A stretch of DNA of 24,000 bases from Candidatus Faeciplasma sp. (GCA_048393055.1 DBFJJS010000013.1:77916-101915), one strand, 5' to 3'. Counted from the stretch's first letter, positions 2,223 through 22,346 are shown. Notes: a model not told the origin generated them from the letters alone. A program made the numbers and translations.

Positions 2223-2276
2223 TGATGATCATCCTTTCTGTAATCCATATGTAAGCGTTTTGTAATATATGAATTG

Positions 2277-2305
2277 TAGACATTCGCGCGGCTTTGTGCT
2301 AAAAT
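2277..2305 (+). promoter_or_regulatory. Putative sigma-A promoter for the VanY-like gene
   Basis: TAGACA (2277-2282), 17-nt spacer, TGc-TAAAAT (2300-2305). Confidence 0.4.
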
Positions 2306-2340
2306 GTGATTGGCAAAAATATTATATAAAGAGGTTACAT

Positions 2341-3276
2341 ATGAAGCTTAAAATTACACTTGCCGCCCTGCTGCTTGTATACGTGCTGCTGCTCGCAGGC
2401 TGCGGCTTTGATAAAATGAATAACGGCAGCCAAGGCGTAAGCTCGGGGACCGTGACCGAACCTGTGACAGAACCTGTAACAGAGCTTGTGACGGAACCTG
2501 TGAAAGAACCTGCAGCTGAAACTGTGACGGAGCCTATGACGGAACCTGTGACAGGATCTGCGACTGAACCTGCAACAGAGCCTGTGACGGAACCCGCAAC
2601 AAAGCCCGCTGTAGAACCCGTAGAAAGCGAAACTACTGTGACCGAAAACACAGAAGAAAGCGAGGTCGAACCAGTGGACAGCGACTACTTCTTCCAAAAC
2701 GAGGACGACTATTTCTTTATAGTAAACAAAGAAATATTCCTGCCGGAGGACTACGAAATAGAAACTGATTATGTCCAAGGCAGCTATGAGCTAGAGAAAA
2801 CCGCCGCATACTATTGCAGACAGATGATAGACGCCGCGGCTGAGGACGGTATCTATCTCAAGGTCCTTTCAGCATACAGGACGGTGTCATACCAACAGAA
2901 ACTGTTTGACAGAAATGTACAGTCGAGAATGGACGATTACGGCATGAGCTATGAGGAGGCGTATTACGACACCTCGATCAACATCGCGCCTCCCGGAGGC
3001 AGCGAGCACAACGCGGGTCTTGCAGTCGACATTGTCACTGAGGACGACTGGGATACCTACATAGGCTTTGAGGATACCGAGGAGTTCGCGTGGCTTCAGG
3101 AGCATGCGGCGGAATACGGCTTTATCCTGAGATATCTCAAGGGCAAGGAGGACATTACAGGCTATATTTATGAGCCGTGGCATTACAGATATGTAGGAGT
3201 TAAATACGCGGCTGACGTTGCAAACAGCGGTCTTTGCCTTGAGGAATACTTTGAAAAATACGTTTGGGGCGCTTAG
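2341..3276 (+). CDS. D-alanyl-D-alanine carboxypeptidase, VanY / peptidase M15B family, lipoprotein
   Basis: I prefer the ATG at 2341 (AAGAGG 7 nt upstream) over the 2269 track start. It has a signal peptide with lipobox LLAGC and a TEPV-repeat linker. M15B motifs are SAYRTVSYQQKLF, SEHNAGLAVDI and EPWHYRYVG. Confidence 0.85.
   Translation: MKLKITLAALLLVYVLLLAGCGFDKMNNGSQGVSSGTVTEPVTEPVTELVTEPVKEPAAETVTEPMTEPVTGSATEPATEPVTEPATKPAVEPVESETTVTENTEESEVEPVDSDYFFQNEDDYFFIVNKEIFLPEDYEIETDYVQGSYELEKTAAYYCRQMIDAAAEDGIYLKVLSAYRTVSYQQKLFDRNVQSRMDDYGMSYEEAYYDTSINIAPPGGSEHNAGLAVDIVTEDDWDTYIGFEDTEEFAWLQEHAAEYGFILRYLKGKEDITGYIYEPWHYRYVGVKYAADVANSGLCLEEYFEKYVWGA
2452..2619 (+). repeat. In-frame 12-nt tandem repeat, about 14 degenerate units (gtgac(n)gaacct, encoding V/A-T-E-P)
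   Basis: Read directly: gtgaccgaacct gtgacagaacct gtaacagagctt gtgacggaacct ... gctgtagaaccc. It forms the linker between the lipobox and the M15 domain. Confidence 0.9.
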
Positions 3277-7993: not shown

Positions 7994-8014
7994 TGCGCCA
8001 AACGCTTTCCGGCA

Positions 8015-8047
8015 GCAAAACGGCTTCCGGAGAAATCCCCGGAAGCC
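8015..8047 (-). terminator. Rho-independent terminator after the cotF-like gene
   Basis: On the minus strand, GGCTTCCGG (8039-8047) pairs with CCGGAAGCC (8022-8030), followed by GTTTTG. Confidence 0.7.
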
Positions 8048-8076
8048 AAAGGAAAATTATTCTTCGTTATCAGGCA

Positions 8077-8538
8077 TTAAACCGCCTGATAAAAGCCGTT
8101 CACGTTCATGAAGGCGTACAGCTTTTCACCGTGCTGCTGTTCCTCCGCCTGAATGTGGTTAAGCACCCTTCTGGCGGCTGGGTCGCCAAACTCGAACACG
8201 CTGGTGTCATACATGGAGGAAACGTGCTTTTCGGTGGCGAGAGTGTCCGATAGAAGGAACTTGTCGATGTTTTTGGACCTCTCATCGGAGTAGTTTACCT
8301 TTTTGCACATATTGTTGTTTTGGCCGCTGAGCCCGCTCGGCACAGATGGGATAGTTCCGGACAGCATGGCGTTTACGGTGTCGAAATGCTTCTGCTCGCA
8401 CTGTGCGATTTCTCCAAACAGGCTCTTAAGCTCCTGAGAGCACGCCTCCTGAGAATACTTTGTATACTTTTCCCAGCAAAGCTTTTCCTGCTCCTTCAAA
8501 TCCTTTAAAAGTCCTGTTTCCTTTTGTGTAAGAGTCAT
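8077..8538 (-). CDS. Spore coat protein, CotF / Coat_F family
   Basis: The N-terminal LTQKETGLLKDLKEQEKLCWEKYTKYSQEA...ELKSLFGEIAQCEQKH and the C-terminal EEQQHGEKLYAFMNVNGFY match the two-repeat ferritin-like Coat_F pattern. AAAGGAGATG is the SD. Confidence 0.75.
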   Translation of the reverse strand: MTLTQKETGLLKDLKEQEKLCWEKYTKYSQEACSQELKSLFGEIAQCEQKHFDTVNAMLSGTIPSVPSGLSGQNNNMCKKVNYSDERSKNIDKFLLSDTLATEKHVSSMYDTSVFEFGDPAARRVLNHIQAEEQQHGEKLYAFMNVNGFYQAV

Positions 8539-8621
8539 AATAACATCTCCTTTTCATAAGATGTCACTATTATTCCATCGCTCGAAGCAATTATACCTTG
8601 ACCTGACTCTTTTGCACGCCG

Positions 8622-9539
8622 TCAGCTTATTTTTGCAACGTCGTAAGGCGTCGTCTGATATACAAAGTAATTGAGCCAGTTTGAGTACAGAAGATTCGCG
8701 TGCGCCCTCCAGCTCACAACCGGGGTTTTCGTATCGTCGTCGTCAGGAAAATAATTTACCGGCACGGCTATATCCAGCCCCTTGGCCTTATCCCTGAAAT
8801 ACTCCTTTGCCAGGGTGTCGCGGTCGTACTCCGAGTGTCCGGTTATAAATATCTGCTTACCCTCGTTTGTCATGCACGCGTATACTCCAGCCTCCCTGCT
8901 TGTAGCGAGTATTTTAAGCTCCGAAACTGCTTCGACGTCCTTTATATCAACCGTAGAATTTCTTGAGTGCGGAGCTAAGAACACATCGTCAAAGCCCCTG
9001 AAAAGTATCGGGTTTTTGTAATCGACGGTATGCTCGAACACGCCGAAGAGCTTTTTGGGCAAAAGCTTTTTCTTTATTCCGAAGTGATAGTAAAGCCCCG
9101 CCTGAGCTCCCCAGCAGATGTGAAATGTGGAGTGGACATGGGTCTTGCTCCACTCAAAAATCTCGCACAGCTCGTCCCAATACTCCACATCCTCGAACTC
9201 AAGGTGCTCCACCGGCGCGCCGGTCACTATCATTCCGTCAAACCGCTGGTCTTTAATATCCTCAAAGGTCTTGTAAAACGCAAACAAATGCTCGGCGGAG
9301 GTGTTCTTTGAAAGATGGCTGACAGTGTGCATAAGCTCCATCTCCACCTGAAGAGGGGTGTTTCCCAAAAGCCTTGCAAGCTGCGTCTCAGTCTCCACCT
9401 TGGTAGGCATAAGGTTTAGTATCAGTATTCTCAACGGACGTATATCCTGCGTCATAGCGCGCGTTTCGGTCATCACGAAGATGTTTTCAGAGGCGAGCGT
9501 CTTGGCCGCCGGAAGCGAGTTTGGTATTTTAATCGGCAT
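8622..9539 (-). CDS. metA: Homoserine O-acyltransferase MetA (probably O-acetyl, given the adjacent metY)
   Basis: [11 protein letters not shown]...[15 protein letters not shown] and the [11 protein letters not shown] catalytic-Cys region are typical of the family. Confidence 0.9.
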
Positions 9540-9590
9540 TGACCGTTTTCCTTTCTTTACAGTATGCAGCGCCGCGTTGGATATCTGCCG

Positions 9591-10868
9591 TCAAACAGAC
9601 TCGAGCGCCTGTTTTAAATCTTCGATAAGGTCCTGCGCGTTTTCAATTCCGCATGACAGCCTTACAAGGTCTCCCGAAACCCCGGCAGCCTTAAGCTCCT
9701 CGTCGTTCATCTGTCTGTGGGTGGCGCTTGCGGGATGCAGGCAGCAGGTTCTGGCGTCCGCAACGTGCGTTTCTATCGCGCAGAGCCTAAGGCGCTTCAT
9801 AAAGTCTTCGGCAGCCTTTCTCCCGCCCTTTACGCCGAAGCTGACTACCCCGCATGAGCCGTTCGGAAGATACTTGCGGCACAGCTCGTGGTCTATATTG
9901 CCCTCGAGATCGGGATAGAACACCCAGCTCACCTTATCGCTTGACTCAAGGAATTTCGCGACCGCCATGGCGTTCTCACAGTGGCGCGCCATTCTTACAT
10001 GAAGGCTTTCAAGACCGATATTGAGAAGATACGCGCTGAACGGCGATTGTGCAGACCCGAAATCCCTCATAAGCTGAGCCGTTGCCTTCGTTATATACGC
10101 GCCCTCGCTGCCGAATCGCTCGGCATAGGTTATGCCGTGATAGCTTTCGTCAGGGGTTGTAAGACCGGGGAATTTGTCCGCATGAGCCATCCAGTCAAAC
10201 TTTCCGGAGTCTACAATGCACCCGCCGACGCATGAGCCGTGACCGTCCATATATTTTGTAGTAGAGTGGGTGACAATGTCCGCTCCCCACTCGAACGGGC
10301 GGCAGTTTACAGGCGTTGCGAAAGTGTTGTCAACGATAAGCGGAACTCCGTGGCGATGAGCGGCTGAGGCAAATTTTTCTATATCGAGCACTCTGAGCGC
10401 AGGGTTCGCAATAGTCTCTCCGAAAACAGCCTTTGTATTCGGCTTAAACGCCGCGTCCAGCTCCTCGGGAGTGCAGTCGGGGGCTACGAATGTAAAATCA
10501 ATGCCCATCTTCTTCATCGTAACGGCAAAGAGATTGAATGTCCCGCCATATATAGAAGCCTCCGCAACGACGTGGTCGCCGCAGTTCGCAATGTTAAACA
10601 CCGCAAAGAAGTTTGCCGCCTGTCCAGAGGAGGTGAGCATGGCAGCTGTTCCGCCCTCCAGCTCGCATATCTTCTTTGCAACCATATCGCAGGTCGGGTT
10701 TTGAAGCCGCGAATAAAAATATCCCGAGGCTTCAAGGTCAAAAAGCCTGCCCATATCCTCGCTGGTATCGTATTTAAATGTTGTGGACTGAATAATCGGT
10801 ATCTGCCTCGGCTCGCCGTTTGAGGGGGTATATCCCCCCTGAACGCATTTTGTTTCAATTCTGCTCAT
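9591..10868 (-). CDS. metY: O-acetylhomoserine sulfhydrylase (PLP-dependent Cys/Met metabolism family)
   Basis: The 425-aa product has TSSGQAA and the PLP-lysine motif HSTTKYMDGHG. The C-terminal LRLSCGIE is typical of MetY/CysD. Confidence 0.9.
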   Translation of the reverse strand: MSRIETKCVQGGYTPSNGEPRQIPIIQSTTFKYDTSEDMGRLFDLEASGYFYSRLQNPTCDMVAKKICELEGGTAAMLTSSGQAANFFAVFNIANCGDHVVAEASIYGGTFNLFAVTMKKMGIDFTFVAPDCTPEELDAAFKPNTKAVFGETIANPALRVLDIEKFASAAHRHGVPLIVDNTFATPVNCRPFEWGADIVTHSTTKYMDGHGSCVGGCIVDSGKFDWMAHADKFPGLTTPDESYHGITYAERFGSEGAYITKATAQLMRDFGSAQSPFSAYLLNIGLESLHVRMARHCENAMAVAKFLESSDKVSWVFYPDLEGNIDHELCRKYLPNGSCGVVSFGVKGGRKAAEDFMKRLRLCAIETHVADARTCCLHPASATHRQMNDEELKAAGVSGDLVRLSCGIENAQDLIEDLKQALESV

Positions 10869-10955
10869 ATATCATGCAAGGTCCGGCAGGAACAACCAAA
10901 CGGGAATTCGCGCCGGACCGTTTCCTTTCTTTAATTTTGTCAATCGGTTTTAAGC

Positions 10956-12023
10956 TTATACAGTCTGTCTCCAGCCCATCGTGTCCGGGCGCTTGCCCCA
11001 CTGGATTCCGGTCAGCTCGTCGTAAAGCCTTTGAGTAAGCTCGCCTATTTTGCCTTCGCCTATAACGAACACCTCATTCTTGTAGCGAAGCTTTCCGACG
11101 GGAGAAACAACCGCCGCAGTTCCGGTTCCGAACACCTCTTCGAGTGTACCGTTGTGCGCGGCTTCTATAAGCTCGTCTACCGAAACCTTCCTCTCCTCTA
11201 CGTCATAGCCCCACTTTCTGCAAAGGGCAAGCACAGAGTCCCTTGTGATCCCGGGGAGAATAGAGCCGTTGAGCATCGGGGTTACTACCTTGCCGGCAAT
11301 TTTAAACACTATGTTCATCGCGCCGACCTCTTCAATGTACTTTCTTTCGACGCCGTCCAGCCACAGCACCTGAGAATAGCCGTCGTCATGCGCCTTTACC
11401 TGCGCCGCAAGCGACGCGGCATAGTTTCCGCCGGTCTTGGCAAAGCCGATTCCTCCCCTGACCGCTCTTACATACTCGTCCTCTATCCATATGCCAACCG
11501 GGGCAAGGCCGCTCTCATAATAAGCGCCGGAGGGAGAAAGTATAATCATGAACAGATAGCTCTTAGAGGGGGCTACGCCTAAGTGCTCGTCTGTCGCAAT
11601 GACAAACGGTCTTATGTAAAGCGAAGTTCCCGGCTCGTCCGGTATCCAGTCCCTGTCTACGTCCACTACCGCCTTGACAGCCTGAACAAAATCGTCCTCA
11701 GGTATCCTGGGTATGCAAAGCCTGTCGTTGGAATTGTTGGCGCGCTTTGCGTTCATGTCGGGTCTGAAAAGATATACCTCGCCGTTATCTCCCTTATACG
11801 CCTTTAGGCCCTCGAACATTGTCTGCCCGTAGTGGAAAACCATTGCGGCGGGTGAAAGAGAAATGTTCTGGAACGGCACTATTCTCGCATCGTGCCAGCC
11901 CTGTCCCTCGTCATAGTTCATGATGAACATGTGGTCGGTAAATATGTGACCGAACCCGAGCTTTTCTCCCTTTTGGGGCTTTGTTTTGGGATTTTGAGTC
12001 TTTTCTATCCTGATATTAAGCAT
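10956..12023 (-). CDS. ilvE: Branched-chain amino acid aminotransferase (class IV)
   Basis: FGHIFTDHMF, YGQTMFEGLKAYK, IRPF and GGNYAASL are family motifs. I place the start at the ATG at 12023 (AGGAG 9 nt upstream). The track start at 12032 is a TTG inside the spacer. Confidence 0.9.
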   Translation of the reverse strand: MLNIRIEKTQNPKTKPQKGEKLGFGHIFTDHMFIMNYDEGQGWHDARIVPFQNISLSPAAMVFHYGQTMFEGLKAYKGDNGEVYLFRPDMNAKRANNSNDRLCIPRIPEDDFVQAVKAVVDVDRDWIPDEPGTSLYIRPFVIATDEHLGVAPSKSYLFMIILSPSGAYYESGLAPVGIWIEDEYVRAVRGGIGFAKTGGNYAASLAAQVKAHDDGYSQVLWLDGVERKYIEEVGAMNIVFKIAGKVVTPMLNGSILPGITRDSVLALCRKWGYDVEERKVSVDELIEAAHNGTLEEVFGTGTAAVVSPVGKLRYKNEVFVIGEGKIGELTQRLYDELTGIQWGKRPDTMGWRQTV

Positions 12024-12042
12024 GTTAATCAACTCCTACCGA

Positions 12043-12582
12043 TTATTTGTCGTAGCGATAGCCTGTCTCAAGCGCGGAAAGATTCAGCTTAAGCATGTCT
12101 GCATGTTTAGCGGAAACAACCTTCTCAAGCGCCTTTTCCACATCCTCAAAACTTACGACGTTGGTCTCTCTTATTATTTTACCCATCATTATCATATTTG
12201 CAAGAGTAGGAATTCCCGAATCAGAGGCAAGCCTTGTCGCAGGGATGTAATAGGTGGCAACGTCCTGCCTTGCGACCTTCCTGTCGATAAGCGCGGAATC
12301 GACAAATATTTTTGCCCCGCTGACTGCGTCATTTTCGTACTTGTCAAGCGACGGAAGATTCATTACGGCAAGTATGTCCGGGTTGGAAACTATCGGAGAG
12401 CCTACCGGAGTGTCCGAAATAATTACTGAGCAGTTGGCGGTGCCGCCTCTCATCTCCGGACCGTACGACGGAAGCCAGCTTATCTCCCTGCCCTCGAGCA
12501 GCCCCTTATACGCCAAAAACTTTCCCGCAAACAGTATTCCCTGTCCGCCGAAGCCGGCTATGAGTATCTGTGTATATGCCAT
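12043..12582 (-). CDS. 2-oxoacid:ferredoxin oxidoreductase, gamma subunit
   Basis: The start ILIAGFGGQGILFAGK...EMRGGTANCSV is typical of the POR/VOR/KOR gamma domain. AAGGAGGA SD; the start is 1 nt after the beta stop. Confidence 0.85.
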   Translation of the reverse strand: MAYTQILIAGFGGQGILFAGKFLAYKGLLEGREISWLPSYGPEMRGGTANCSVIISDTPVGSPIVSNPDILAVMNLPSLDKYENDAVSGAKIFVDSALIDRKVARQDVATYYIPATRLASDSGIPTLANMIMMGKIIRETNVVSFEDVEKALEKVVSAKHADMLKLNLSALETGYRYDK

Positions 12583-12583
12583 A

Positions 12584-13336
12584 TCATCTATCCTCCTTGC
12601 CGGCCGACCTGTCCTTGTAAACGCCGAGCGGGTAGTATGGGATCATATTTGTCTCGACCCATTCCATCGCCTTAGACGGCGTCATGCCCCAGTTTGTCGG
12701 GCAGGTGGACAGTACCTCCACAAGTGAGAAGCCCCTGCCGTTTATCTGGTTCTCAAAAGCCTTTTTGATAGCCTTTTTCGCTGTCATGACGTTTTTAACG
12801 TTATTTACCGCTACTCTCTGGATAAATTCCGGACCATCCAGCGCGGAAAGCAGCTCGCTCACCTTTATCGGGTATCCCACGGTTTTTACATCTCTGCCGT
12901 AGGGAGAGGTCTGTGTGACCTGACCGGGAAGAGAGGTCGGAGCCATCTGCCCGCCGGTCATGCCGTATATCGCGTTGTTTATAAAAATAACCGTTATATT
13001 TTCGTTTCTTGTAGCCGCATGAACGGTTTCAGCCATACCTATCGAGGCGAGGTCGCCGTCGCCCTGATAAGTGAAAACAATGTTCTGTGGCATCGCCCTT
13101 TTAAGTCCCGTTGCGACCGCAGGCGCTCTTCCGTGAGCAGCCTCGACCATGTCGCAGGAGAAATAGTTATATGCCATTACCGCGCAGCCCACGGGAGCTA
13201 CTCCGACGGTGTCCCCCAATATTCCAAGCTCGTCTATAGCCTCAGCCACAAGACGGTGAACAATGCCGTGCGTACAGCCCGGGCAGTAGTGGAGCGGCGC
13301 GTCGGTAAGCGCCTTCGGCTTTTCAAAAACTACCAT
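12584..13336 (-). CDS. 2-oxoacid:ferredoxin oxidoreductase, beta (TPP-binding) subunit
   Basis: HYCPGCTHG cysteine motif and GDGD...NNAIYGMTGGQ TPP motif. Its start overlaps the alpha stop (TGATG). Confidence 0.9.
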   Translation of the reverse strand: MVVFEKPKALTDAPLHYCPGCTHGIVHRLVAEAIDELGILGDTVGVAPVGCAVMAYNYFSCDMVEAAHGRAPAVATGLKRAMPQNIVFTYQGDGDLASIGMAETVHAATRNENITVIFINNAIYGMTGGQMAPTSLPGQVTQTSPYGRDVKTVGYPIKVSELLSALDGPEFIQRVAVNNVKNVMTAKKAIKKAFENQINGRGFSLVEVLSTCPTNWGMTPSKAMEWVETNMIPYYPLGVYKDRSAGKEDR

Positions 13337-14397
13337 CAGTTTTCGCCTCCCATCAAATCGTCAAGCGTTTTAAGTATCTCGCCCGGGTCGGGGATCATTC
13401 CGCCCACTCTCGAGCACAGCGCTACCGGCTTCCTGCATTCCTCCGAAAGCCTTATATCCTCTATCATCTGCCCCATCGACAGCTCCACCGAAATAAACGC
13501 CTTGACCCTGTCCGCGGCGGACGCTATCGCCTTCTTGGGGAAGGGCCACAGCGTAATCGGTCTTATCATGCCTATTTTTATACCCCTTGCGCGGGCCGCT
13601 GTGATAGCGTTCTTCGCAACGCGCGCTGCTATTCCGAACGCAACGACGCAATACTCGGCGTCGTCCATGAGATACTCCTCGTACATTACCTCGTTTTCCT
13701 CTACGAGCTTGTATCTTTCATATCTCTCGAGGTTTTTCCTTTCAAGCTCCTCAGGCACAAGATACAGCGAGTTTACGATATTGTGCTCGCGCCTGCCCTT
13801 TGTTCCTGTTACCGCCCACGGCTTTTCCACGACGGACTCAGTAGGCTCGGGCAAAACTACCGGCTCCATCATCTGACCCATCGTTCCGTCTGCAAGTATC
13901 ATCGCGGGGATGCGGTATTTATCCGAAAGATTAAACGCCTTAGCGGTAAAATCAGCCATTTCCTGAACCGACGCCGGAGCTAATACTATCAGATGATAGT
14001 CTCCATGCCCGCCGCCCTTTGTCGCCTGGAAATAATCCGACTGAGAGGGCTGAATGCCTCCGAGCCCCGGACCGCCTCTTTGCACGTTTACAATGAGCGC
14101 AGGAAGGTCCGAGCCGGCAAGATAGGATATTCCCTCCTGCTTGAGCGAAACTCCGGGGCTTGAGGATGAGGTCATAGCCCTCAGGCCCGCGCTCGAAACA
14201 CCGTAAATCATATTTATCGCAGCTATTTCGCTTTCCGCCTGCAAAAACGTTCCGCCTATCTTGGGCATTCTCTTCGCCATATATGCCGCCACCTCTGTCT
14301 GAGGCGTTATAGGGTATCCGAAATAATGGCGGCAGCCCGCTCTTATGGCAGCCTCCGCTATCGCTTCGTTGCCCTTCATAAGTACCTTTTCAGCCAT
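13336..14397 (-). CDS. 2-oxoacid:ferredoxin oxidoreductase, alpha subunit (VorB/KorA-like)
   Basis: MKGNEAIAEAAIRAGCRHYFGYPITPQTE and QAESEIAAINMIYG. I prefer the ATG at 14397 (AAAGGA 9 nt upstream) over the TTG at 14415. Confidence 0.9.
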   Translation of the reverse strand: MAEKVLMKGNEAIAEAAIRAGCRHYFGYPITPQTEVAAYMAKRMPKIGGTFLQAESEIAAINMIYGVSSAGLRAMTSSSSPGVSLKQEGISYLAGSDLPALIVNVQRGGPGLGGIQPSQSDYFQATKGGGHGDYHLIVLAPASVQEMADFTAKAFNLSDKYRIPAMILADGTMGQMMEPVVLPEPTESVVEKPWAVTGTKGRREHNIVNSLYLVPEELERKNLERYERYKLVEENEVMYEEYLMDDAEYCVVAFGIAARVAKNAITAARARGIKIGMIRPITLWPFPKKAIASAADRVKAFISVELSMGQMIEDIRLSEECRKPVALCSRVGGMIPDPGEILKTLDDLMGGEN

Positions 14398-14417
14398 ATC
14401 ATCCCGTCCTTTCAAAG

Positions 14418-14624
14418 CTATTTTTCAACTGTTATAACGCAGTCGGGGCACATTGTAGCGCAGAACGCGCAGCCTATGCACTTGGACTGGTCGGTTATCT
14501 GTGCAGGAGAATGGCCCTTTTTATTGAGCTTATCCTTGGCGATTGCGATAATTTTCTTTGGACATGCGTCTACGCAAAGACCGCAGCCCTTGCACAGGTC
14601 CTCTTTAAAAGTTACCTTCGGCAT
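14418..14624 (-). CDS. 2x[4Fe-4S] ferredoxin-like delta subunit
   Basis: The 68-aa product has CKGCGLCVDACP and CIGCAFCATMCP. AAGGAGATG is the SD. Confidence 0.85.
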   Translation of the reverse strand: MPKVTFKEDLCKGCGLCVDACPKKIIAIAKDKLNKKGHSPAQITDQSKCIGCAFCATMCPDCVITVEK

Positions 14625-14636
14625 TAAAACATCTCC

Positions 14637-15302
14637 TTAATTTATATCAAAATATCTTTTCTGAAGCGTAAGGGGGAAAACATCCGTCATCTTAAGGCGG
14701 CTCGCGACCTGTCTCTCCACAGATGTAAAAAGTATGGGCAGCCCCGAAAGCTCTGAAAGCATCTGCGCCTCGTGACGGCTGTTTAAAACCGTTTCGACCG
14801 TAGTCTCCCGCCCGAGGTTTGTATTATTTACAACGGCTGTAAACGGCAATCCCGCCGCAGGCTCTATTTCGCGCATGACCTCGAGCGCCTCCCCTGCAGT
14901 TCGGGTAAGCGGACGGCAGAAATTCGCCACGAATATCATCTCGTAATCGTTTTCCTCTAAAATATACGGTGCGAACCTCCCAAGGGCATACGCTCCCCTG
15001 TCGTCTCCGCCTATGTCCAGAACGGCGTGCCTTGAGCGGTTCTGAACTACTCCGTACAGCTCGGACGGCAGCGCCGGAAGGTCTACGTTTGAGTTCGCAA
15101 ACTCGGGCGAAATAATGTCTATTCCGAGCTTTGACATCTCACGCGCGCTGTCCTTTGTCCTGAAATACGGATTTACAATGTCAAGGTCTGCTATCACCAC
15201 ATCCCTGCCCTCGCGCTTAAGATACGCGGCGTAATTGACTGCTATATTGGTTTTTCCGCTTCCGTAATGACCTGCAAGAAGCGTCACTCTCTTTACTCTC
15301 AT
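14637..15302 (-). CDS. P-loop NTPase (SIMIBI-like, MinD/CooC-related fold), function unknown; first gene of the oxidoreductase operon
   Basis: Walker A LLAGHYGSGKT sits at the extreme N-terminus and a Walker-B-like VLDIGGDD follows. There are no TM segments or other domains. Its stop lies 12 nt before the delta subunit start. Confidence 0.7.
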   Translation of the reverse strand: MRVKRVTLLAGHYGSGKTNIAVNYAAYLKREGRDVVIADLDIVNPYFRTKDSAREMSKLGIDIISPEFANSNVDLPALPSELYGVVQNRSRHAVLDIGGDDRGAYALGRFAPYILEENDYEMIFVANFCRPLTRTAGEALEVMREIEPAAGLPFTAVVNNTNLGRETTVETVLNSRHEAQMLSELSGLPILFTSVERQVASRLKMTDVFPLTLQKRYFDIN

Positions 15303-15496
15303 TTACTGCGGATTTCTCCTCAATCTCCATTATGCAAATCCGCCCCAAAGACGCAATATCCTCGAGGCGGAAAATTCTCCAAAGCACCGTATGACTGCAC
15401 CGCGCCGCCCGACCTGTACGGGTCCGCGGCAATTTGTATAGATAGATAATACCGATACGGACAGTTTCCGTCTATGCTTTTATACTTTACAGTGGT

Positions 15497-15525
15497 ATTT
15501 TAGCACACCCCGTCTTAAATGTCAA
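15497..15525 (-). promoter_or_regulatory. Strong sigma-A promoter for the NTPase-oxidoreductase-ilvE operon
   Basis: Minus strand reads TTGACA (15520-15525), 17-nt spacer, TGc-TAAAAT (15497-15502). A leader of about 190 nt follows. Confidence 0.6.
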
Positions 15526-15558
15526 CAATTTCGACGTGTTAAATTTGTACAAATTGCC

Positions 15559-17829
15559 TTACAGCTCGTTGCGCTTAATCTTTCCGCTGATGGTCTTGGG
15601 AAGCTCGTCGCGGAATTCGATAATTCTGGGATACTTATAAGGAGCAGTGTGGCTTTTTACATAAGCCTGTATCTCCTTTTTCAGCTCCTCGCTGGGCGTT
15701 GTTCCCTTTGTAAGGACTATTGCAGCCTTAACCACCTGACCTCTTATCTCGTCGGGCGCTCCGCATACTCCGCATTCCAAAATATACGGCAGCTCCATGA
15801 GCACGCTTTCAATCTCAAACGGACCTATCCTGTAGCCTGACGACTTGATAACATCGTCGATTCTCGAAACATAGTAGAAGTAGCCGTCCTCATCGCGCCA
15901 TGCCGTGTCGCAGGTGTGATACATTCCGTCGTGCCATACCTCAGAGGTTTTTTCAGGGTCGTTATAGTACTCCTTGAACAGCCCGCACGGCACTCCCTTA
16001 TCTGTGCGGATGACTATTTCTCCTACCTCGCCCGCGCCGCAGGACCTTCCCTCGCTGTCAACGATATCGACGTCGAACTGCGGGGTGGGCTTGCCCATCG
16101 AGCCGAGCTTCGGAGCCGTTCCGTTGAGGTTGGCGATGATAAGGGTGGTCTCCGTCTGACCGAAGCCCTCCATGATCTCAAGCCCTGTGCTCTCGGCAAA
16201 CTGCTTTGAAACCTCCGGGTTTAAAGCCTCTCCGGCGGTAGTCATATTTTTTATGGAGGACAAATCGTACTTTGAAAGGTCCTCTTTAATCATCATTCTG
16301 AGCATTGTGGGAGGCGCGCAGAAGGTGGTTATATTGTACTTTGCAAACATGGGAAGGATATCGTGAGCGTCGAATTTATCAAAATCGTATACAAATACCG
16401 CGCCCTCGCAAAGCCACTGACCATAGAGCTTGCCCCACAGCGACTTTCCCCAGCCTGTATCGGAAATCGTAAGGTGAAGCCCGTCCCTCTGGCAGCAGTG
16501 CCAGTACTTCGCGGTCACATAATGACCCAGCGCATAGGTGTGCGCATGCTCCGCCATCTTGGGATTTCCGGTTGTTCCCGAGGTGAAGAACATCAGCGCG
16601 GCGTCCGAGCCGCAGGAGCAGTCGCCGGGACGCTCAAACTTACCCGTAAAGAGCGAATACTCGCTGTTAAAATCATGCCAGCCCTCGCGAGCCCCGTTCA
16701 CCATTATAAGCTGCTTTACGCTCGGGCACTTTTTCGCCGCCCTTTGCGCAATTTCGGCAGTATCTCCGTCCGCTGTGCAGACCAGCGCGGAAACTCCGGC
16801 GGCGTTGAAGCGGTATTCAAAGTCATGCTCCTTGAGCTGATTTGTTGCGGGGATGGCAATTGCCCCGAGCTTGTGAAGCGCTATCATGCAGAACCAGAAC
16901 TGATAATGCCTCTTTAAAACGAGCATTACGCGGTCGCCCTTCTTTATGCCGAGCGATTTAAAATAATTAGCCGTCTGATTGGACGCGCGCTTTATATCCT
17001 TAAAGGTAAATCTTCTTTCCTCATGGTTTTTGCTGATATGAAGCATAGCCAGCTTGTCGGGGTATTTGTCCGCGATGGCGTCTACAATGTCAAACCCGAA
17101 ATTAAAGGTCTCGGTATTTTTAAAATGGATTTTCTTGAGATGACCGTGCTCATCCTCGACCGCGTCTATAAACTTTTCGCAGCATATGAGCTTTTCGGAC
17201 CTGCCCGCCTGTATAACGTTTTCACGGACTACCTCCTCCTTGGTCTCCTCGCCTGGAAGCACTACGGCAACAAAGGTGCAGTCCGTTCCGTCTACAGCTA
17301 TCATGCCGTGAGGAGTAGCTGAATTGTAGTAAATGCTGTCACCCTCGTGCAGAACCTCAGTGTGCTCGCCGACCTGAACCTTCAGGCTTCCGCTTATGAC
17401 AAGGTCAAATTCCTGCCCGCTGTGCGTTGTAAGGTGGATAGGCTGGTTCTGCTGCGCCGCCGAATACTCGTATTTGACCCAGTACGGCTCCGCAATCTTG
17501 CCCTTAAACTTGGGCGCAAGGTTGGAGATGTCTATTCCCTGCTCCTTCGCCGTCTTTTGACCCATTCCCTTTCTGGTCACTGTATATGAGGTTAGCCTTT
17601 GCTCGTTGTTTCCCTCGATAAGGTCGGTAAGGTCTATGTCGAACGCGAGCGCGCATTTATGTATGAACGTAAACGGCAGGTCTGCCTCGGCAGCCTCGTA
17701 TTTAAGATACTCCTGCTCGCTCACCTCTGTTTTTTCCGCCATCTGCCTGGGCGTCCAGCCCATGATCTCGCGCATGCCCCTGATACGGGTCGCAATATCA
17801 ACCAGTCTTGTCTGCGAATTTGTCGCCAT
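15559..17829 (-). CDS. Fusion protein: XRE-family HTH + cupin + AMP-forming (medium/short-chain) acyl-CoA synthetase
   Basis: One uninterrupted ORF. The ATG at 17829 has AAAGGAAG 7 nt upstream; the track start at 17847 lies inside that SD. HTH is about aa 9-71 (17617-17805). Cupin is about aa 105-191 (17257-17517), with THSGQEFDLVISG and GDSIYYNSATPHG. The adenylate-forming domain is about aa 215-756 (15562-17187), with FFTSGTTGNPK, GFGQTETT, YHTCDTAWRDEDGYFYYVSRIDDVIKSSGYRIGPFEIES and PKTISGKIKR. Confidence 0.85.
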   Translation of the reverse strand: MATNSQTRLVDIATRIRGMREIMGWTPRQMAEKTEVSEQEYLKYEAAEADLPFTFIHKCALAFDIDLTDLIEGNNEQRLTSYTVTRKGMGQKTAKEQGIDISNLAPKFKGKIAEPYWVKYEYSAAQQNQPIHLTTHSGQEFDLVISGSLKVQVGEHTEVLHEGDSIYYNSATPHGMIAVDGTDCTFVAVVLPGEETKEEVVRENVIQAGRSEKLICCEKFIDAVEDEHGHLKKIHFKNTETFNFGFDIVDAIADKYPDKLAMLHISKNHEERRFTFKDIKRASNQTANYFKSLGIKKGDRVMLVLKRHYQFWFCMIALHKLGAIAIPATNQLKEHDFEYRFNAAGVSALVCTADGDTAEIAQRAAKKCPSVKQLIMVNGAREGWHDFNSEYSLFTGKFERPGDCSCGSDAALMFFTSGTTGNPKMAEHAHTYALGHYVTAKYWHCCQRDGLHLTISDTGWGKSLWGKLYGQWLCEGAVFVYDFDKFDAHDILPMFAKYNITTFCAPPTMLRMMIKEDLSKYDLSSIKNMTTAGEALNPEVSKQFAESTGLEIMEGFGQTETTLIIANLNGTAPKLGSMGKPTPQFDVDIVDSEGRSCGAGEVGEIVIRTDKGVPCGLFKEYYNDPEKTSEVWHDGMYHTCDTAWRDEDGYFYYVSRIDDVIKSSGYRIGPFEIESVLMELPYILECGVCGAPDEIRGQVVKAAIVLTKGTTPSEELKKEIQAYVKSHTAPYKYPRIIEFRDELPKTISGKIKRNEL

Positions 17830-17849
17830 GGTGCATCTTCCTTTCAAAT

Positions 17850-18155
17850 ATCACATAAAATCGCAACAAAAAGGCCCGTCTCAAATCCAAACGCCTGTGT
17901 TGCGTTCAAATACTTGAGACGAGCCGAATATTTTGACCCGCGGTACCACTCAAATTGCGCTAAAAAGCGCCGCTCAGACTCTAACAAGCCTTATACATTA
18001 ACGCAGTAATCACGTAAGACGCCTACCCGCCCGAGGGCGATCGGATCTTATGCTCGGAAGTGATGGGATTATCTTAACATCTGCCGGCTTCCACCATTTC
18101 CGGCTCGCTGAAAAATGCCGCTCAAGATTCTCCGTCTTCGTCATCGCATTTATTG
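17850..18155 (-). promoter_or_regulatory. T-box riboswitch leader, apparent specifier AUC (isoleucine)
   Basis: On the minus strand the Stem I base is GCGAUGACGAAG...CUUCCGAGCA (K-turn/GA motif). There is an AG bulge AGCGAG and a distal loop UGGUGGAA. The specifier position reads CCC-AUC-A-CUUCCGAGCA (codon at 18062-18064). Stem III is GCGCUUUUUAGCGC. The T-box motif AAUUUGAGUGGUACCGCGG lies at 17938-17956, with UGGU matching an A73 discriminator. A terminator/antiterminator alternative follows. Confidence 0.85.
17865..17925 (-). terminator. T-box terminator hairpin
   Basis: Minus-strand RNA reads GGCUCGUCUCAAGUAUUUGAACGC-AACACAG-GCGUUUGGAUUUGAGACGGGCC followed by UUUUU. Its 5' arm (CUCAAG) can also pair with UUGAG in the T-box motif to form the antiterminator. 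Confidence 0.8.
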
Positions 18156-18161
18156 TTCACA

Positions 18162-18190
18162 ATTATAGCATTGTGTTTTTTGATTGTCAA
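18162..18190 (-). promoter_or_regulatory. Perfect-consensus sigma-A promoter driving the T-box leader
   Basis: Minus strand reads TTGACA (18185-18190), 17-nt spacer, TGc-TATAAT (18162-18167). Confidence 0.7.
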
Positions 18191-18219
18191 GCCGTCGTTT
18201 GCAACAATAATTTAGCGAG

Positions 18220-19056
18220 TTAGTACGGCAGTGCTGTGCAGTTTTCACGCTGCTCCAATCCCAGCCTGAATATCCTGTTTGCATTTTTAAAAAATATAAG
18301 CTCCAGCTCTTCCTCCGTCAGGCCAAGGCTGCGAACCCTTTCGATCTCTTTGACGGGATTCCACATCGGAAAGTCCGTGCCGAAAAGCACACGCCCCGCG
18401 CCGTAGCTGCGGATTATCTCGACGGCCCTTTGAGGCGCCATTGCATACAGGCTTGAAGAGCAGTCCACATAAAAATTGTCATACCCGCAAAGGCGGCTGC
18501 ACGCCTCGTCCCACACCGAATATCCGCCAAGGTGCGCACCTATGACAGTAAGGTTCTTAAATATCTCCACCACAGGCTGAAGGCGGTTGGGGTTTGACAT
18601 ATCAAACCTTGAATCGCCAGCGTGCACAAGGACAGGCAGACCGTTTTGCTCACACAACTCATATATTTTAAGGCAGCGGTAATCGTCAAGCTTAAAGCCC
18701 TGTATGTCCGGGTGGAGCTTTACCCCCTTGAGCCCAAGCTCAATAAGGCGGCTCACATCGCCCCGTATGTCCGGGCTGTTTGGATGAAGCGTGCCCAGCC
18801 CCGCGAAAAAACCGCTGTCCGATTCTGCGGTAGAGGCGATAAACTCGTTTATCGAGCTTGTCTGAGACGGCTTTGTGGCGACGGAAAATATAATCGCTTT
18901 CGTTATTCCCGCCTGAGATGCAAGAGTTTTTACCGTACTCACCCTTCCGTCGTACCTGACCGGCATATTATAAAATCTGCTTATGCCGTCGGACGCCTTT
19001 TGGGCTATGCTGTCAGGGTACACATGGCAGTGACAGTCGACAATAATGCTTTTCAT
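18220..19056 (-). CDS. Metal-dependent TIM-barrel hydrolase (amidohydrolase_2-like)
   Basis: MKSIIVDCHCHVYP supplies the HxH metal ligands, with VKLHP, VLVHAG and LFGTDFP also present. I prefer the ATG at 19056, 14 nt after the GH115 stop. The track start at 19092 would overlap GH115. Confidence 0.8.
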   Translation of the reverse strand: MKSIIVDCHCHVYPDSIAQKASDGISRFYNMPVRYDGRVSTVKTLASQAGITKAIIFSVATKPSQTSSINEFIASTAESDSGFFAGLGTLHPNSPDIRGDVSRLIELGLKGVKLHPDIQGFKLDDYRCLKIYELCEQNGLPVLVHAGDSRFDMSNPNRLQPVVEIFKNLTVIGAHLGGYSVWDEACSRLCGYDNFYVDCSSSLYAMAPQRAVEIIRSYGAGRVLFGTDFPMWNPVKEIERVRSLGLTEEELELIFFKNANRIFRLGLEQRENCTALPY

Positions 19057-19070
19057 ATGGTTTTGCGCCT

Positions 19071-22000
19071 TCAATCGTTTACAATGAGCCACGGAGCGTC
19101 CTTTTGCACAGGCTCTCCCATGAAGCTGTCGTATGTCGGCTTGGGACCGATAAGAGACGGCTCGAGCTTAAGGCTTGAATCCATGATTACAAGCTTTTGC
19201 ACCACCGCGTTCTGGTCCATGCCCCACAGCCTGAGGGTATGGCAGCCCTTTGAAAGGCTCAGCGTTGTCTGCGCGCGCCTGCCGCCCTGCTCGATTGTCG
19301 CGTACCAGCTTCCGCTGACGCCGGAAATATATCCCTCGCCCTGAACGTTGAGCGCGTCTATTTCCCCACCGTCGAGCTGCACGCCGACGTTCAGGTGAGT
19401 TCCGTTGTCAAAGGAGACATTGTTGCCCTGACCGACGTACAAAATAAGATTGTAATCGCCGTCCTTCGGGATTACCATATTGTAATCCACCCACGGTCCT
19501 TTTCCCGCTTTAAAAGGCTCGGTGCAGGTTTTGAGCATCTTAAGAGAAGCCCTTGATTTGCCGTAGCCCTCGAGGACTGTCCAGCTTACGCCGCAGCTTT
19601 CCGATTTGGCGGCATATCCGTCCGCCCGTACACACATTATGCCGTTTGACATAAAGTGAGCTTTGTCCCTGCCGGCAGCGTGAACGTCAACAAGCTTGAC
19701 GTTAAACCTGATGTCCACCCGTTTGTCTGACGAACGCACTATAATAGTGCCGGATGTGTTCTCCCTGACGCGGCTCCAGTCTATTTTTACCGCAAAGCTC
19801 TTCGCGGCAAGGCACTCGCCCTTCGTTTCGCCGTCTATTATAACAAAGTCCTCGAACGCCTCGACGGTATACTCAAACGGCTTATCCGAGCCGTTGGTTA
19901 TGTTTACGACATACGCCTGCTTTTCGCTCGACTCAAAGTCGGGAAGTAAAACCTCTCCGTCCAAAACGCCTTCCGCAATCCCCGGCACATCGACGATAAG
20001 CCTTGGGTTCTTACACGGCTCGATGCGCTTTGGCACAAGCTTTATTGCGGACTGACCGTTCCAGCTCGAATAGTTCATATGCGCCTGGGCGGTGACTCGA
20101 CCGAGTATCGGGTCGGTATACTGCTTGCAGTAGTCTGGCGACGCGATCATCATGCCGTACCACTTGTTCACGCCGTTTAAGCTTTCACCCATGGCGTTAT
20201 ACCTGTCGGTAAGCTCTTCGTCGAGCGCCAGATACCGCTCCACAAGCCCGGCATAGGTGTTTGCAAGGACAGAGCCTCTTTGAGCGTAAAGCTCGTTAAG
20301 ACCAAACATTATCTGTATCCTTACGACGTTAGCGGAAGCCACCGCCGGGTAATATACAAGCTGATAAAACTGCTCGTACCGGCAGGAGTTCTCGCCTATT
20401 TTTTCTGCAATTGCGTCGCAGCGGGAAATTATGCTTTCACAGAGCTTCAGGCGGTCCGCCGCGTCATCGTAGTTTAAAATGCTGTAGCTGCAGTCGCCGG
20501 AGCTTTTAAGCGTTTCCGGCTTGCATACTCCGTTGAGCCAGGTGTAATCGTCCAAAATCGAGCATATTGCGTCCATATCGGAATCATCAAGCTTAGATTC
20601 CGCGCCGAACTGGCTTCTCACCCATTCACTCACGTACTTTTCGGTGTTATTGGGATTTGAAATTCCGTATTTCTCAAAATCATAGGCAAGGTCCATAAAG
20701 TAACTGAGCGGCAGCTCCATCGGTCTTAGGTCTCCGACGTTTACTATCCACGCGTCGTCAACGCCGTACTCATAAGCCTGCGTAAGATTCTCCCATGAGC
20801 GCTGAAGCGGCATGGTGTTTATCCACATCGAGGTCTTCGGGCTTCCAACGTAGTCAAAGTGATAATAAAGTCCCCAGTTGTACTCGTTTTGCTGACCGAG
20901 CTCCGGCAGCGTGCGCAAATAGCCGTTGTTGTCCTCGCAGAGCATTACTATCCTGTTTGTCTGAGCGCCCAAAAGCCCCGCGACCTCCGGGTCGTCCCTG
21001 AGGCCGTTGCCCTTCGCCGCCTCGGGGTTTGCCCTTGAACCTCCGTACCAGCAGTTTTCAACCTCCTTGTACACAGCCAGAAGAAGCGGAGTGTCCTCAA
21101 GCCCGTGCTCGCCCAAAATCCTGTACTGCGTCCTTAAAACCGCCTTCAAAAGCTCGATATTGTCCTTAGTATCAAGGCTTTTGCCCTTTGCGTCTATAAG
21201 GACGGAGTCGTTCTCGCCCCTCATTCCTATTGTCAGAAGGTTATTAAAGCCCCCGTTGCGGTACACGGCGTCGCTCCAGAATGCCTCGATATTATTCGGA
21301 TTTAAAAGGTAATTCCACAGCTTCTGACCCTCGTCTGTTGGTATGGACGGGTCTCGGTAGGTTATTTTATCGCTCCAATAGCCCTGGAGCATTCCCCATT
21401 CGCCGCCGCTTCTTGCCATAGGCTCATGGTGGGAAGCGCCGACCGTTATGCCGTATCTGTCCGCCAAAACCGCATTGGCAAGCGTCATCGGATATTCCCC
21501 CGGCTTTAAATAGCCGGTTTTGTTCCCTTTGCCGTCGGTAACCGGCACATCTATCGGAGCGTTTTCATTTCCGGGCTGATCGCGGTACATAAGTCCGCCG
21601 AGCTTATAGTGATATTTTTTCTCAAGCTCGCAGAACCTGTCCGAATCTCCCACTCCCTCCATGCCGTCGCAGCTGAAGTTGTTCGACCACATCGCGGGCC
21701 ACATATAGTTTCCCTTCAGCCTGAGTATCAGCTTGAATATCTCGTCGTAGAACATATAATTGAGTCCGCCGAAATGGCTGTCGGCAAAGCCGTTTAAGCA
21801 GGGGTTCTCGTCGTTCATGAAGAAGCCTCTGAAGTTTACCGACGGTCTTTTAGAAACGCATTCCAGCTCGCTTATGCCCGCCTCGAGCTTATCGGTTTTT
21901 TTCGGCTTGATATCAGCCCACCATATCCAGGGGCTGACGCCGAATATGTCCTGAGTTATATGGAAAAGTCCATAATATACTCCCCTTTTATCAGAGCCGG

Positions 22001-22346
22001 CAACAATGACCTTGGTCCTTTTCCCGTCATGCCTGACCTTTATCTCATATCTTTCCCACTGCTCCGATTTAAACGAGCCGTTGCTTGGCCATATCTGCCA
22101 ATCAAGTCCCTCGTCCGCTATCGCCTTGTCGTCCACTACACCCGCCATTATATAAACGCCGAAGTCCGGCTCCTTTGTCACTACCTCTGGTCTTGCGCCG
22201 GTAAGAGCCTCTATATCGTCGCATATCGCCTCTGTGACAAGGCATAATCCGTCGTAGGCGGAGCCGCTTTTATCTATGTATATCGGCGCGGCTTCCTTAG
22301 ACGTCGCAAAAACAATTTTCATATCACTGTTACCTGCCATCTGCAT
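19071..22346 (-). CDS. Glycoside hydrolase family 115-like (xylan alpha-glucuronidase family), no signal peptide
   Basis: The 1091-aa product has FRGFFMNDENPCL...LILRLKGNYMWPAMW and later GASHHEPM and IGMRGEND, as in GH115. AGGAGG lies 8 nt upstream of the ATG at 22346. The N-terminus MQMAGNSDMKIVFATSKEAA is not hydrophobic. Confidence 0.8.
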   Translation of the reverse strand: MQMAGNSDMKIVFATSKEAAPIYIDKSGSAYDGLCLVTEAICDDIEALTGARPEVVTKEPDFGVYIMAGVVDDKAIADEGLDWQIWPSNGSFKSEQWERYEIKVRHDGKRTKVIVAGSDKRGVYYGLFHITQDIFGVSPWIWWADIKPKKTDKLEAGISELECVSKRPSVNFRGFFMNDENPCLNGFADSHFGGLNYMFYDEIFKLILRLKGNYMWPAMWSNNFSCDGMEGVGDSDRFCELEKKYHYKLGGLMYRDQPGNENAPIDVPVTDGKGNKTGYLKPGEYPMTLANAVLADRYGITVGASHHEPMARSGGEWGMLQGYWSDKITYRDPSIPTDEGQKLWNYLLNPNNIEAFWSDAVYRNGGFNNLLTIGMRGENDSVLIDAKGKSLDTKDNIELLKAVLRTQYRILGEHGLEDTPLLLAVYKEVENCWYGGSRANPEAAKGNGLRDDPEVAGLLGAQTNRIVMLCEDNNGYLRTLPELGQQNEYNWGLYYHFDYVGSPKTSMWINTMPLQRSWENLTQAYEYGVDDAWIVNVGDLRPMELPLSYFMDLAYDFEKYGISNPNNTEKYVSEWVRSQFGAESKLDDSDMDAICSILDDYTWLNGVCKPETLKSSGDCSYSILNYDDAADRLKLCESIISRCDAIAEKIGENSCRYEQFYQLVYYPAVASANVVRIQIMFGLNELYAQRGSVLANTYAGLVERYLALDEELTDRYNAMGESLNGVNKWYGMMIASPDYCKQYTDPILGRVTAQAHMNYSSWNGQSAIKLVPKRIEPCKNPRLIVDVPGIAEGVLDGEVLLPDFESSEKQAYVVNITNGSDKPFEYTVEAFEDFVIIDGETKGECLAAKSFAVKIDWSRVRENTSGTIIVRSSDKRVDIRFNVKLVDVHAAGRDKAHFMSNGIMCVRADGYAAKSESCGVSWTVLEGYGKSRASLKMLKTCTEPFKAGKGPWVDYNMVIPKDGDYNLILYVGQGNNVSFDNGTHLNVGVQLDGGEIDALNVQGEGYISGVSGSWYATIEQGGRRAQTTLSLSKGCHTLRLWGMDQNAVVQKLVIMDSSLKLEPSLIGPKPTYDSFMGEPVQKDAPWLIVND

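Follow-up and report, generated by a model that had tools for sequence, protein, structure and literature searches.

A T-box leader with an isoleucine specifier upstream of a predicted 2-methylbutyrate-CoA ligase gene in Candidatus Faeciplasma

Introduction

Why is the gene of an acyl-CoA ligase preceded by a T-box, which tRNA would that T-box read, and which acid would the ligase activate? These questions are raised by a stretch of 24,000 nucleotides from Candidatus Faeciplasma sp. (GCA_048393055.1, DBFJJS010000013.1:77916-101915), here called the window, in which a leader RNA on the minus strand precedes the gene of a fusion protein containing a helix-turn-helix (HTH) domain, a cupin domain and an acyl-CoA ligase. 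An earlier note, made from the sequence alone, had placed a T-box with the isoleucine specifier AUC at 17850-18190 and had seen in it a functional clue to the substrate of the ligase. The analysis presented here finds that the RNA is a transcriptional T-box of the standard kind, apart from an unusual specifier loop, and that its specifier is AUC. With a probability of roughly three in four, a T-box responding to tRNA-Ile gates the ligase, and the ligase, a VorB-type 2-oxoacid:ferredoxin oxidoreductase (VOR) and the aminotransferase IlvE convert 2-methylbutyrate to isoleucine.

It is long established that anaerobes of the rumen and gut require or use isobutyrate, 2-methylbutyrate and isovalerate for valine, isoleucine and leucine. 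In rumen organisms, 2-methylbutyrate is reductively carboxylated to isoleucine, and isobutyrate is a precursor of valine (PMC2812497, PMC7356843).

Results

The Rfam T-box model RF00230 matches the minus strand of the window at 18153..17912 over the full model (positions 1-219) with a score of 88.5 bits (E-value 1e-19 when the region is searched and 2.7e-18 in a search of the whole window). The features listed in the earlier note, namely the T-box motif, K-turn, AG bulge, distal loop, Stem III and the terminator and antiterminator pair, are all present on this strand, and the span that it gave extends from the promoter through the terminator. The K-turn GCGAUGA...CGAGC is legible in the leader and is covered by the model alignment (GAUGA...CGAGC). 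In the upper part of Stem I, the AG bulge AGCGA and the distal loop AAUGGUGGAAG both lie within the same alignment. Stem II, the IIA/B element with the F-box CGUUA, and Stem III GGCGCUUUUUAGCGC are all aligned to RF00230, and a IIA/B pseudoknot is predicted from this alignment. The T-box sequence AAUUUGAGUGGUACCGCGG is located at 17956..17938 (minus strand), with UGGU at 17948..17945 inside the bulge UGGUACC, where the earlier note had read it as fitting a tRNA with A73.

For comparison, 80 related loci were gathered with the ligase protein from metagenome-assembled genomes (MAGs) of gut and rumen Clostridia, plus three from Sphaerochaetaceae. A T-box lies upstream of the ligase in nearly all of the 80, after correction for pattern misses and truncated contigs; one evaluable locus, L037, has none in this position. 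The T-box motif pattern missed the leader of L023, which was recovered by the covariance model. The orthologous leaders of L015 and L023 score 104.7 and 84.4 bits against RF00230, respectively. Among the leaders of the sets LIG1 and LIG2 that the pattern search detected, all contain UGGU. The closing pairs of the K-turn and the basal helix are 100% paired across the 72 orthologous leaders with a complete Stem I, which also provide the specifier counts given below. The minimum free energy (MFE) fold of the whole 301-nt leader is uninformative (z -1.9), and the stability of Stem I by itself is nothing out of the ordinary (z +0.3). The leader is supported by the covariance model and by covariation, not by energy.

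The leader is preceded by a perfect sigma-70 promoter at 18190..18162 (minus strand), TTGACA-17-TATAAT with an extended -10 TG, which matches 12 of 12 consensus positions and is the best within 8000..19500. Nearly all orthologous leaders are preceded, with similar spacing, by the hexamer TTGACA. At the other end of the leader, the antiterminator folds at -12.5 kcal/mol and consists of helix A1, the 7-nt bulge and helix A2. The terminator at 17925..17873 folds at -30.6 kcal/mol (z -6.24, with none of 200 shuffles as stable) and is followed by UUUUU at 17872..17868. These two structures are mutually exclusive because both use GGCUCGUCUCAAGU. An equivalent terminator hairpin with a T-run is present in 73 of 76 orthologous leaders. 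The start codon of the regulated gene, ATG at 17829, is located past the terminator.

The specifier was assigned with positions numbered from the basal helix. The triplet AUC (Ile) occupies positions -4..-2 in all 72 leaders and is the sole invariant triplet beside the basal helix. It is preceded by C, U or G and followed, at position -1, by A in 52 leaders, C in 17 and G in 3, the window having A. The triplet that precedes this register varies: CCC in 41 leaders, CCU in 16, CUU in 10 and others in 5. The helices on both sides of the loop covary. The basal helix GAAG/CUUC shows four compensations to GAGG/CCUC, and the helix above the specifier, GGnn/nnCC, contains double changes in 30 and 24 sequences at its third and fourth pairs. 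In these framing helices 95.8% of cells are paired, compared with 87.6% in shuffles, the covariation score is reached by none of 500 shuffles, and sliding the helix partners by 1-3 columns abolishes the pairing. This covariation identifies the specifier loop of this clade as compact, a 2 x 5 internal loop with AC opposite N-AUC-N. In the MFE fold, CAUCA is left unpaired. The earlier note had found CCC, not GAA, ahead of the codon. This is correct, and the same structure accounts for it, since the last two Cs of the triplet are base-paired with the conserved GG of ACGG in the covarying helix. An AGAA/UAA internal loop, which occurs three pairs higher in the window, is not conserved.

The register can also be judged from a second class of leaders of the same architecture, which belong to paralogous ligase genes described below. 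In these leaders positions -4..-2 read GUA (42 leaders) or GUC (3 leaders), both valine codons, and positions -3..-1 give stop codons (UAG or UAA). At -5..-3 the leaders of the Ile class read CAU, UAU or GAU, which specify three different amino acids. With stops in one neighbouring register and mixed amino acids in the other, -4..-2 is the sole sensible register in both classes. In locus L015, one and the same slot of the Rfam model holds AUC+A in the orthologous leader, GUA+G in the paralogous leader (82.5 bits) and CUC+G in a third T-box (114.9 bits). The AUC specifier proposed earlier is thus upheld by its conservation in 72 of 72 leaders, by the slot that it occupies in L015 and by the register of the valine paralogue.

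The UGGU of the bulge calls for a tRNA with A73 (3' ACCA end). A73 is present in tRNA-Ile, tRNA-Val and tRNA-Pro, while bacterial tRNA-Ser has G73, tRNA-His C73 and tRNA-Cys U73. The codon AUC obeys the "C rule" described for the third position of T-box specifiers, and the Stem II domain, which is present in the window leader, stabilises codon-anticodon pairs rich in A and U (PMC7583486).

The coordinates of the leader, the gated gene and the downstream cluster are collected in Table 1.

Table 1. Features of the T-box locus in the window
Feature	Position	Strand	Support
Sigma-70 promoter of the leader	18162..18190	-	12/12 consensus match
T-box leader RNA (Stem I, II, IIA/B, III, antiterminator)	17912..18153	-	RF00230, 88.5 bits
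Stem I (K-turn, compact specifier loop, AG bulge, distal loop)	18052..18147	-	Model alignment, MFE fold, covariation
Specifier AUC (Ile), then A at 18061, then CUUC of the basal helix	18062..18064	-	72/72 orthologues
T-box sequence AAUUUGAGUGGUACCGCGG, UGGU 17948..17945	17938..17956	-	Model alignment, direct reading, fold
Intrinsic terminator hairpin 17925..17873 and U-run 17872..17868	17868..17925	-	Fold -30.6 kcal/mol, z -6.24
HTH(XRE)-cupin-acyl-CoA ligase, 756 aa, predicted 2-methylbutyrate-CoA ligase	15559..17829	-	Pfam HTH_19/HTH_3, Cupin_2, AMP-binding, AMP-binding_C
Internal promoter-like site TTGACA-17-TAAAAT, TG	15497..15525	-	11/12 match; conserved in close relatives L081, L082
P-loop NTPase, weak MinD/ParA/Mrp-like hits	14637..15302	-	Weak Pfam and NCBIfam; syntenic in nearly all sufficiently long loci
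2x[4Fe-4S] ferredoxin-type (delta-like) subunit	14418..14624	-	Pfam Fer4 families
2-Oxoacid:ferredoxin oxidoreductase alpha subunit, VorB type	13336..14415	-	NCBIfam NF005507 VorB, 553 bits vs cut-off 399
Oxidoreductase beta subunit (thiamine pyrophosphate-binding)	12584..13336	-	Pfam TPP_enzyme_C; NCBIfam PorB_KorB below cut-off
Oxidoreductase gamma subunit	12043..12582	-	Pfam POR
Branched-chain amino acid aminotransferase IlvE	10956..12032	-	NF009897 501 bits vs 307; TIGR01123 408 vs 250

The protein coded by the gated gene is indeed the acyl-CoA ligase fusion that had been recognised earlier, with the order HTH-cupin-AMP-ligase according to Pfam. The ligase part has 54.8% identity over 518 residues with the protein of PDB entry 3ETC (E-value 4e-194). 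This is MacsMa of Methanosarcina acetivorans, whose preferred substrate is 2-methylbutyrate (PMC10455477) and whose pocket residue Trp259 is described as critical for substrate binding. W443 of the window ligase is aligned with this tryptophan. The similarity suggests that 2-methylbutyrate is the most likely substrate of the window ligase as well. The earlier claim of a functional clue to the substrate of the ligase is backed by the likeness to 3ETC, by VOR and IlvE downstream and by the Val-specific paralogue. The N-terminal XRE-type HTH and cupin region (residues 1-215, window 17190-17829, minus strand) has no PDB relative by sequence and has weak NCBIfam hits to RstR and PuuR.

In 47 related loci (within L002-L079) there is a paralogous HTH-cupin-ligase, about 63% identical, with its own promoter, T-box, terminator and valine specifier. 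In most of these loci the Val-class ligase follows the window-type ligase at a distance of about 350-550 nt, in a few at a greater one, and it is directly followed by the P-loop, Fer4, VOR and IlvE genes (for example, L015 12320-14889, with the ligase at 12610-14889, and L005 12518-14902). The window lacks the Val-class paralogue and has only the Ile-class ligase and an amidohydrolase. A comparison of 81 Ile-class with 43 Val-class proteins gives 14 fixed differences, of which 12 are located in the HTH-cupin region and two in the ligase domain; the preponderance in the former suggests a class-specific ligand or partner for it. One of the two in the ligase domain, C446V, is three residues after W443. 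The other, G461A, falls in the GW-x-K motif, with Gly in the Ile class and in MacsMa and Ala in the Val class. Position 461 is presumably the Acs pocket residue Val310 of S. enterica and Ile312 of M. thermautotrophicus, the numbering (Val310/Thr311) being unconfirmed in the literature check. An extra methyl group in the enzyme where the substrate has one carbon fewer would be predicted for a pair of ligases acting on 2-methylbutyrate and isobutyrate. The Val-class ligase, with this Gly-to-Ala change in its pocket, probably takes isobutyrate.

A third T-box, with the leucine codon CUC, is found 4-5 kb upstream in 13 loci (L015, L017, L019, L023, L032, L034, L036, L046, L048, L061, L067, L076 and L079). 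In L015 (4653-9657) it precedes genes for a truncated LeuA-like protein (458 aa), an 817-aa fusion of a xylose-isomerase-like TIM barrel with an acyl-CoA ligase, and an Amidohydro_2 protein. This operon may represent an isovalerate/leucine branch. The amidohydrolase gene of the window (18220-19092, minus strand), which adjoins the promoter of the T-box on its upstream side, corresponds to the gene that closes the Leu T-box operon in the relatives and is found here without a T-box. Its overlap with the end of a gene for a 1091-aa protein (19071-22346, minus strand) is 22 nt, and this latter gene has a GH115-like counterpart in the close relative L082. Further T-box motifs occur past ilvE in L033 (19717), L038 (10044), L042 (15824), L055 (13595), L072 (19508) and L073 (19595), and positions -4..-2 read CUG or CUC (Leu) in these. 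Three loci from spirochaete MAGs (L070, L077 and L080, Sphaerochaetaceae) have the same AUC T-box and ligase, with IlvE, P-loop and VOR genes about 0.85 kb downstream; these copies look like horizontal transfer from Clostridia. In L015, a match to the Gut-1 RNA (19294-19371; 48.8 bits, gathering score 50, E-value 5e-07) lies just past the VOR gamma gene and has no counterpart in the window.

Downstream of the ligase, the gene order ligase, P-loop, Fer4, VOR and IlvE is kept in most loci that reach far enough, and also in the two closest relatives by exact-protein look-up. According to the gene content of the window and the related loci, the cluster contains IlvE and no ilvBCD genes. No terminator was seen in the window after the stop codon of the ligase gene. 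The gap of 256 nt between the ligase and P-loop genes (15303-15558, minus strand) contains, after the internal promoter-like site, a GC-rich leader of about 190 nt, which has no Rfam match and is less conserved than the promoter in L081 and L082. Past ilvE, at a distance of 88 nt, are metY (O-acetylhomoserine sulfhydrylase family) and metA (window 8622-10868, minus strand). For these two genes no S-box, T-box or terminator was detected, and the first strong terminator on the same strand is at 8048..8021. The order ilvE-metY-metA is also found in L001 and L081 and in part in L023 and L075. A scan of the whole window with Rfam under an E-value threshold revealed no further T-box, S-box or other riboswitch, so that metY, metA and the internal VOR leader are without a recognised RNA element. 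Elsewhere in the window, an open reading frame at 2269-3276 (plus strand) has, close to its N-terminus, an extended stretch of (V/A)TEP-like repeats.

Discussion

The findings can be combined in the following mechanism, in which the response to tRNA, the substrate of the ligase and the direction of the VOR reaction are predicted from sequence. When isoleucine is plentiful, charged tRNA-Ile would be unable to stabilise the antiterminator, the terminator would form, and transcription would end before the ATG of the ligase gene. When tRNA-Ile is uncharged, its anticodon GAU would pair with the specifier AUC and its 3' ACCA end with UGGU, the antiterminator would hold, and the ligase would be made. 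Read-through would probably also raise the expression of the downstream genes. The ligase would convert exogenous 2-methylbutyrate into 2-methylbutyryl-CoA, which the VorB-type oxidoreductase would reductively carboxylate to 2-keto-3-methylvalerate, and IlvE would transaminate the latter to isoleucine. The combination of an AMP-forming ligase, VOR and an aminotransferase appears coherent only in the anabolic direction, from acid to acyl-CoA, 2-oxoacid and amino acid. A switch responding to isoleucine starvation, placed on the activating enzyme, fits such a route of reductive carboxylation.

Several observations weigh against this interpretation. The score of the window leader, 88.5 bits, does not reach the gathering score of RF00230, 93; for this reason a scan of the window with the default gathering threshold gives no match, and the T-box surfaces only under an E-value threshold. 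The small shortfall arises in loops and inserts. Beside the specifier, the covarying Watson-Crick helix GGnn/nnCC takes the place of the canonical S-turn (AGUA/GAA), and in 17 of the 72 orthologues the codon is followed by C where a purine is usual. The alignment of the window leader to RF00230, read literally, fills the slot of specifier plus purine with CCC-A and not with AUC. A tRNA search of the window and 60 loci gave no tRNA-Ile gene with which A73 or the GAU anticodon could be compared. The best NCBIfam model for the ligase, MbcS (NF047394), is matched with 440.7 bits, below the equivalog cut-off of 850; by sequence the window ligase is related to MbcS without being its orthologue. With the internal promoter at 15525..15497, expression of VOR and IlvE may be independent of the T-box. 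Since these genes have an apparent promoter of their own, the T-box strictly gates the ligase alone, which is the predicted substrate-specific step. VOR and IlvE, presumably common to all branched acids, may be expressed both by read-through and from the independent promoter.

The alignment to RF00230 that the earlier note had proposed as a check thus gives a divided answer: in the window the slot holds CCC-A, and in the orthologue of L015 the model itself places AUC+A there. This raises the alternative that the T-box is real with another specifier, either CCC (Pro) or one of the overlapping triplets UCA (Ser) and CAU (His). The 3' strand of the specifier loop in the window alignment is UAAUCCCAUCA (11 nt, 18061-18071); the eight loop positions of the model are laid on UAAUCCCA, and "uca" is treated as an insertion with a posterior of about 0.7. 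As CCC is not conserved (41/16/10/5 among the variants) and its two 3' Cs are engaged in a covarying helix, its presence in the slot appears to be an artefact of insertion placement, in which a loop strand of 11 nt meets a model of eight positions. A proline specifier would agree with UGGU, for tRNA-Pro also has A73, and the triplets at -3..-1 of the orthologues, UCA, UCC and UCG, are all serine codons. Against serine stand the UAG and UAA stops in the same register of the homologous Val leaders, and against histidine the three amino acids found in the CAU register; moreover, G73 of tRNA-Ser and C73 of tRNA-His both mismatch UGGU. A different specifier is consequently extremely improbable. Equally hard to credit is a decaying or non-functional relic of a T-box. 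The low score and the lack of an S-turn adjoining the specifier would suit a relic, whereas all modules are intact, the promoter is perfect, the terminator is strong, and 72 leaders from many species retain the same compact loop, with compensatory substitutions.

Even with an isoleucine T-box, the purpose of the ligase could be different. MbcS of S. aureus is a selective 2-methylbutyrate/isobutyrate-CoA synthetase that supplies primers for branched-chain fatty acids (PMC10026030), and as MbcS is the best NCBIfam model for the window ligase, 2-methylbutyryl-CoA might serve here as a primer for anteiso fatty acids, with a shortage of isoleucine signalling a shortage of primer. The plausible separate promoter of VOR and IlvE would be consistent with this. 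The linkage of ligase, VOR and IlvE across most loci, some of which have a ligase 0-30 nt away from the downstream genes, the anabolic coherence of this gene set, and the match of separate Ile and Val T-boxes on separate ligases to amino acid demand argue for isoleucine synthesis instead, and a primer role in place of it seems unlikely. The two roles are compatible and not mutually exclusive. Another possibility is that the ligase activates propionate and that VOR carboxylates propionyl-CoA to 2-oxobutyrate, which would enter the normal isoleucine pathway. The carboxylation of propionate to 2-oxobutyrate is a known anaerobic route to isoleucine. Against it, the cluster contains IlvE with no ilvBCD genes. 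The pocket residue also argues against propionate, as the Ile class has Gly461, the residue pattern of a larger pocket and the same as in MacsMa, and the Val class Ala, while a C3 substrate would predict the opposite. Propionate is accordingly a very unlikely substrate, even though MacsMa adenylates it, unproductively (PMC10455477).

The preferred reading, a tRNA-Ile T-box on a 2-methylbutyrate-activating ligase, can be compared with known systems. The window leader shares its modules and their order, from the K-turn through the antiterminator and terminator, and the UGGN bulge with the transcriptional T-boxes of Firmicutes (RF00230; for example tyrS and glyQS of B. subtilis, and the ileS T-boxes). 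It differs from them in its compact 2 x 5 loop (AC opposite N-AUC-N), where a GGnn/nnCC helix replaces the AGUA/GAA S-turn, in the base 3' of the codon, which is not always a purine in this clade, and in its target, an acyl-CoA ligase instead of an aminoacyl-tRNA synthetase, transporter or ilv gene. With MacsMa (3ETC) the window ligase has in common the Gly in place of the Acs pocket Trp (GFGQTET), the tryptophan W443/Trp259 and the Gly of GW-G-K. Unlike MacsMa, it is bacterial and T-box-regulated, its substrate is a predicted one, and it has an N-terminal XRE-HTH and cupin extension of about 215 residues. MbcS is its best-scoring NCBIfam model, yet the score is far under the equivalog cut-off (441 vs 850), and MbcS feeds fatty-acid initiation, has no HTH-cupin region and is not linked to VOR or IlvE. 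The reductive carboxylation of branched acids in the rumen is matched by the gene set of the window, with its predicted activation and ferredoxin-dependent carboxylation and its transamination; here tRNA-specific leaders appear to label each ligase.

A wider model may be put forward tentatively. Gut and rumen Clostridia might possess a modular system for making branched-chain amino acids from branched acids. Each paralogous HTH-cupin-ligase in it would be marked by a separate T-box, that of the 2-methylbutyrate ligase being specific for Ile and that of the isobutyrate ligase for Val, a nearby ligase operon would have a Leu T-box, and all would share one VOR/IlvE set. The HTH-cupin region would add a BirA-like layer that detects the acid, its acyl-adenylate or the amino acid and acts on the internal promoter of VOR or on the enzyme. 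As a whole this model is speculative and rather doubtful. BirA is a biotin protein ligase and a repressor, an adenylate-forming enzyme with an N-terminal helix-turn-helix. The likeness of the window ligase to BirA, an enzyme with an N-terminal HTH, is an analogy in architecture only, by which a similar role as enzyme and repressor is conceivable for the HTH-cupin-ligase.

No paper was found that ties T-boxes to branched-acid CoA ligases, to VOR or to the branched-acid pathway, in a search that was without the main T-box survey (Vitreschak 2008) and Gutierrez-Preciado 2009, Shah 2009 and Meng 2010, so that an earlier mention is possible. The surveys of T-box regulons that were examined make no mention of such ligase or oxidoreductase genes, and no paper was found in the literature that assigns branched-acid activating enzymes or their specificity to genes. 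Within the searchable literature, the link between a T-box regulon and branched-acid ligases therefore seems new. Automatic T-box annotation and specifier callers would probably overlook this leader or mislabel it as Pro. As a practical warning, the default threshold of Rfam and automatic calling of the specifier both fail on it.

The T-box specifiers (AUC; GUA/GUC) are built-in labels which, together with the Gly/Ala switch in the pocket, predict the acid for each ligase. An assignment of gene and substrate makes an old biochemical observation experimentally approachable. In uncultured Oscillospiraceae, Acutalibacteraceae and Christensenellaceae it would also serve as a genomic marker of a dependence on branched-chain acids, with relevance to ruminant nutrition, in which these acids are given as supplements, and to cross-feeding in the gut.

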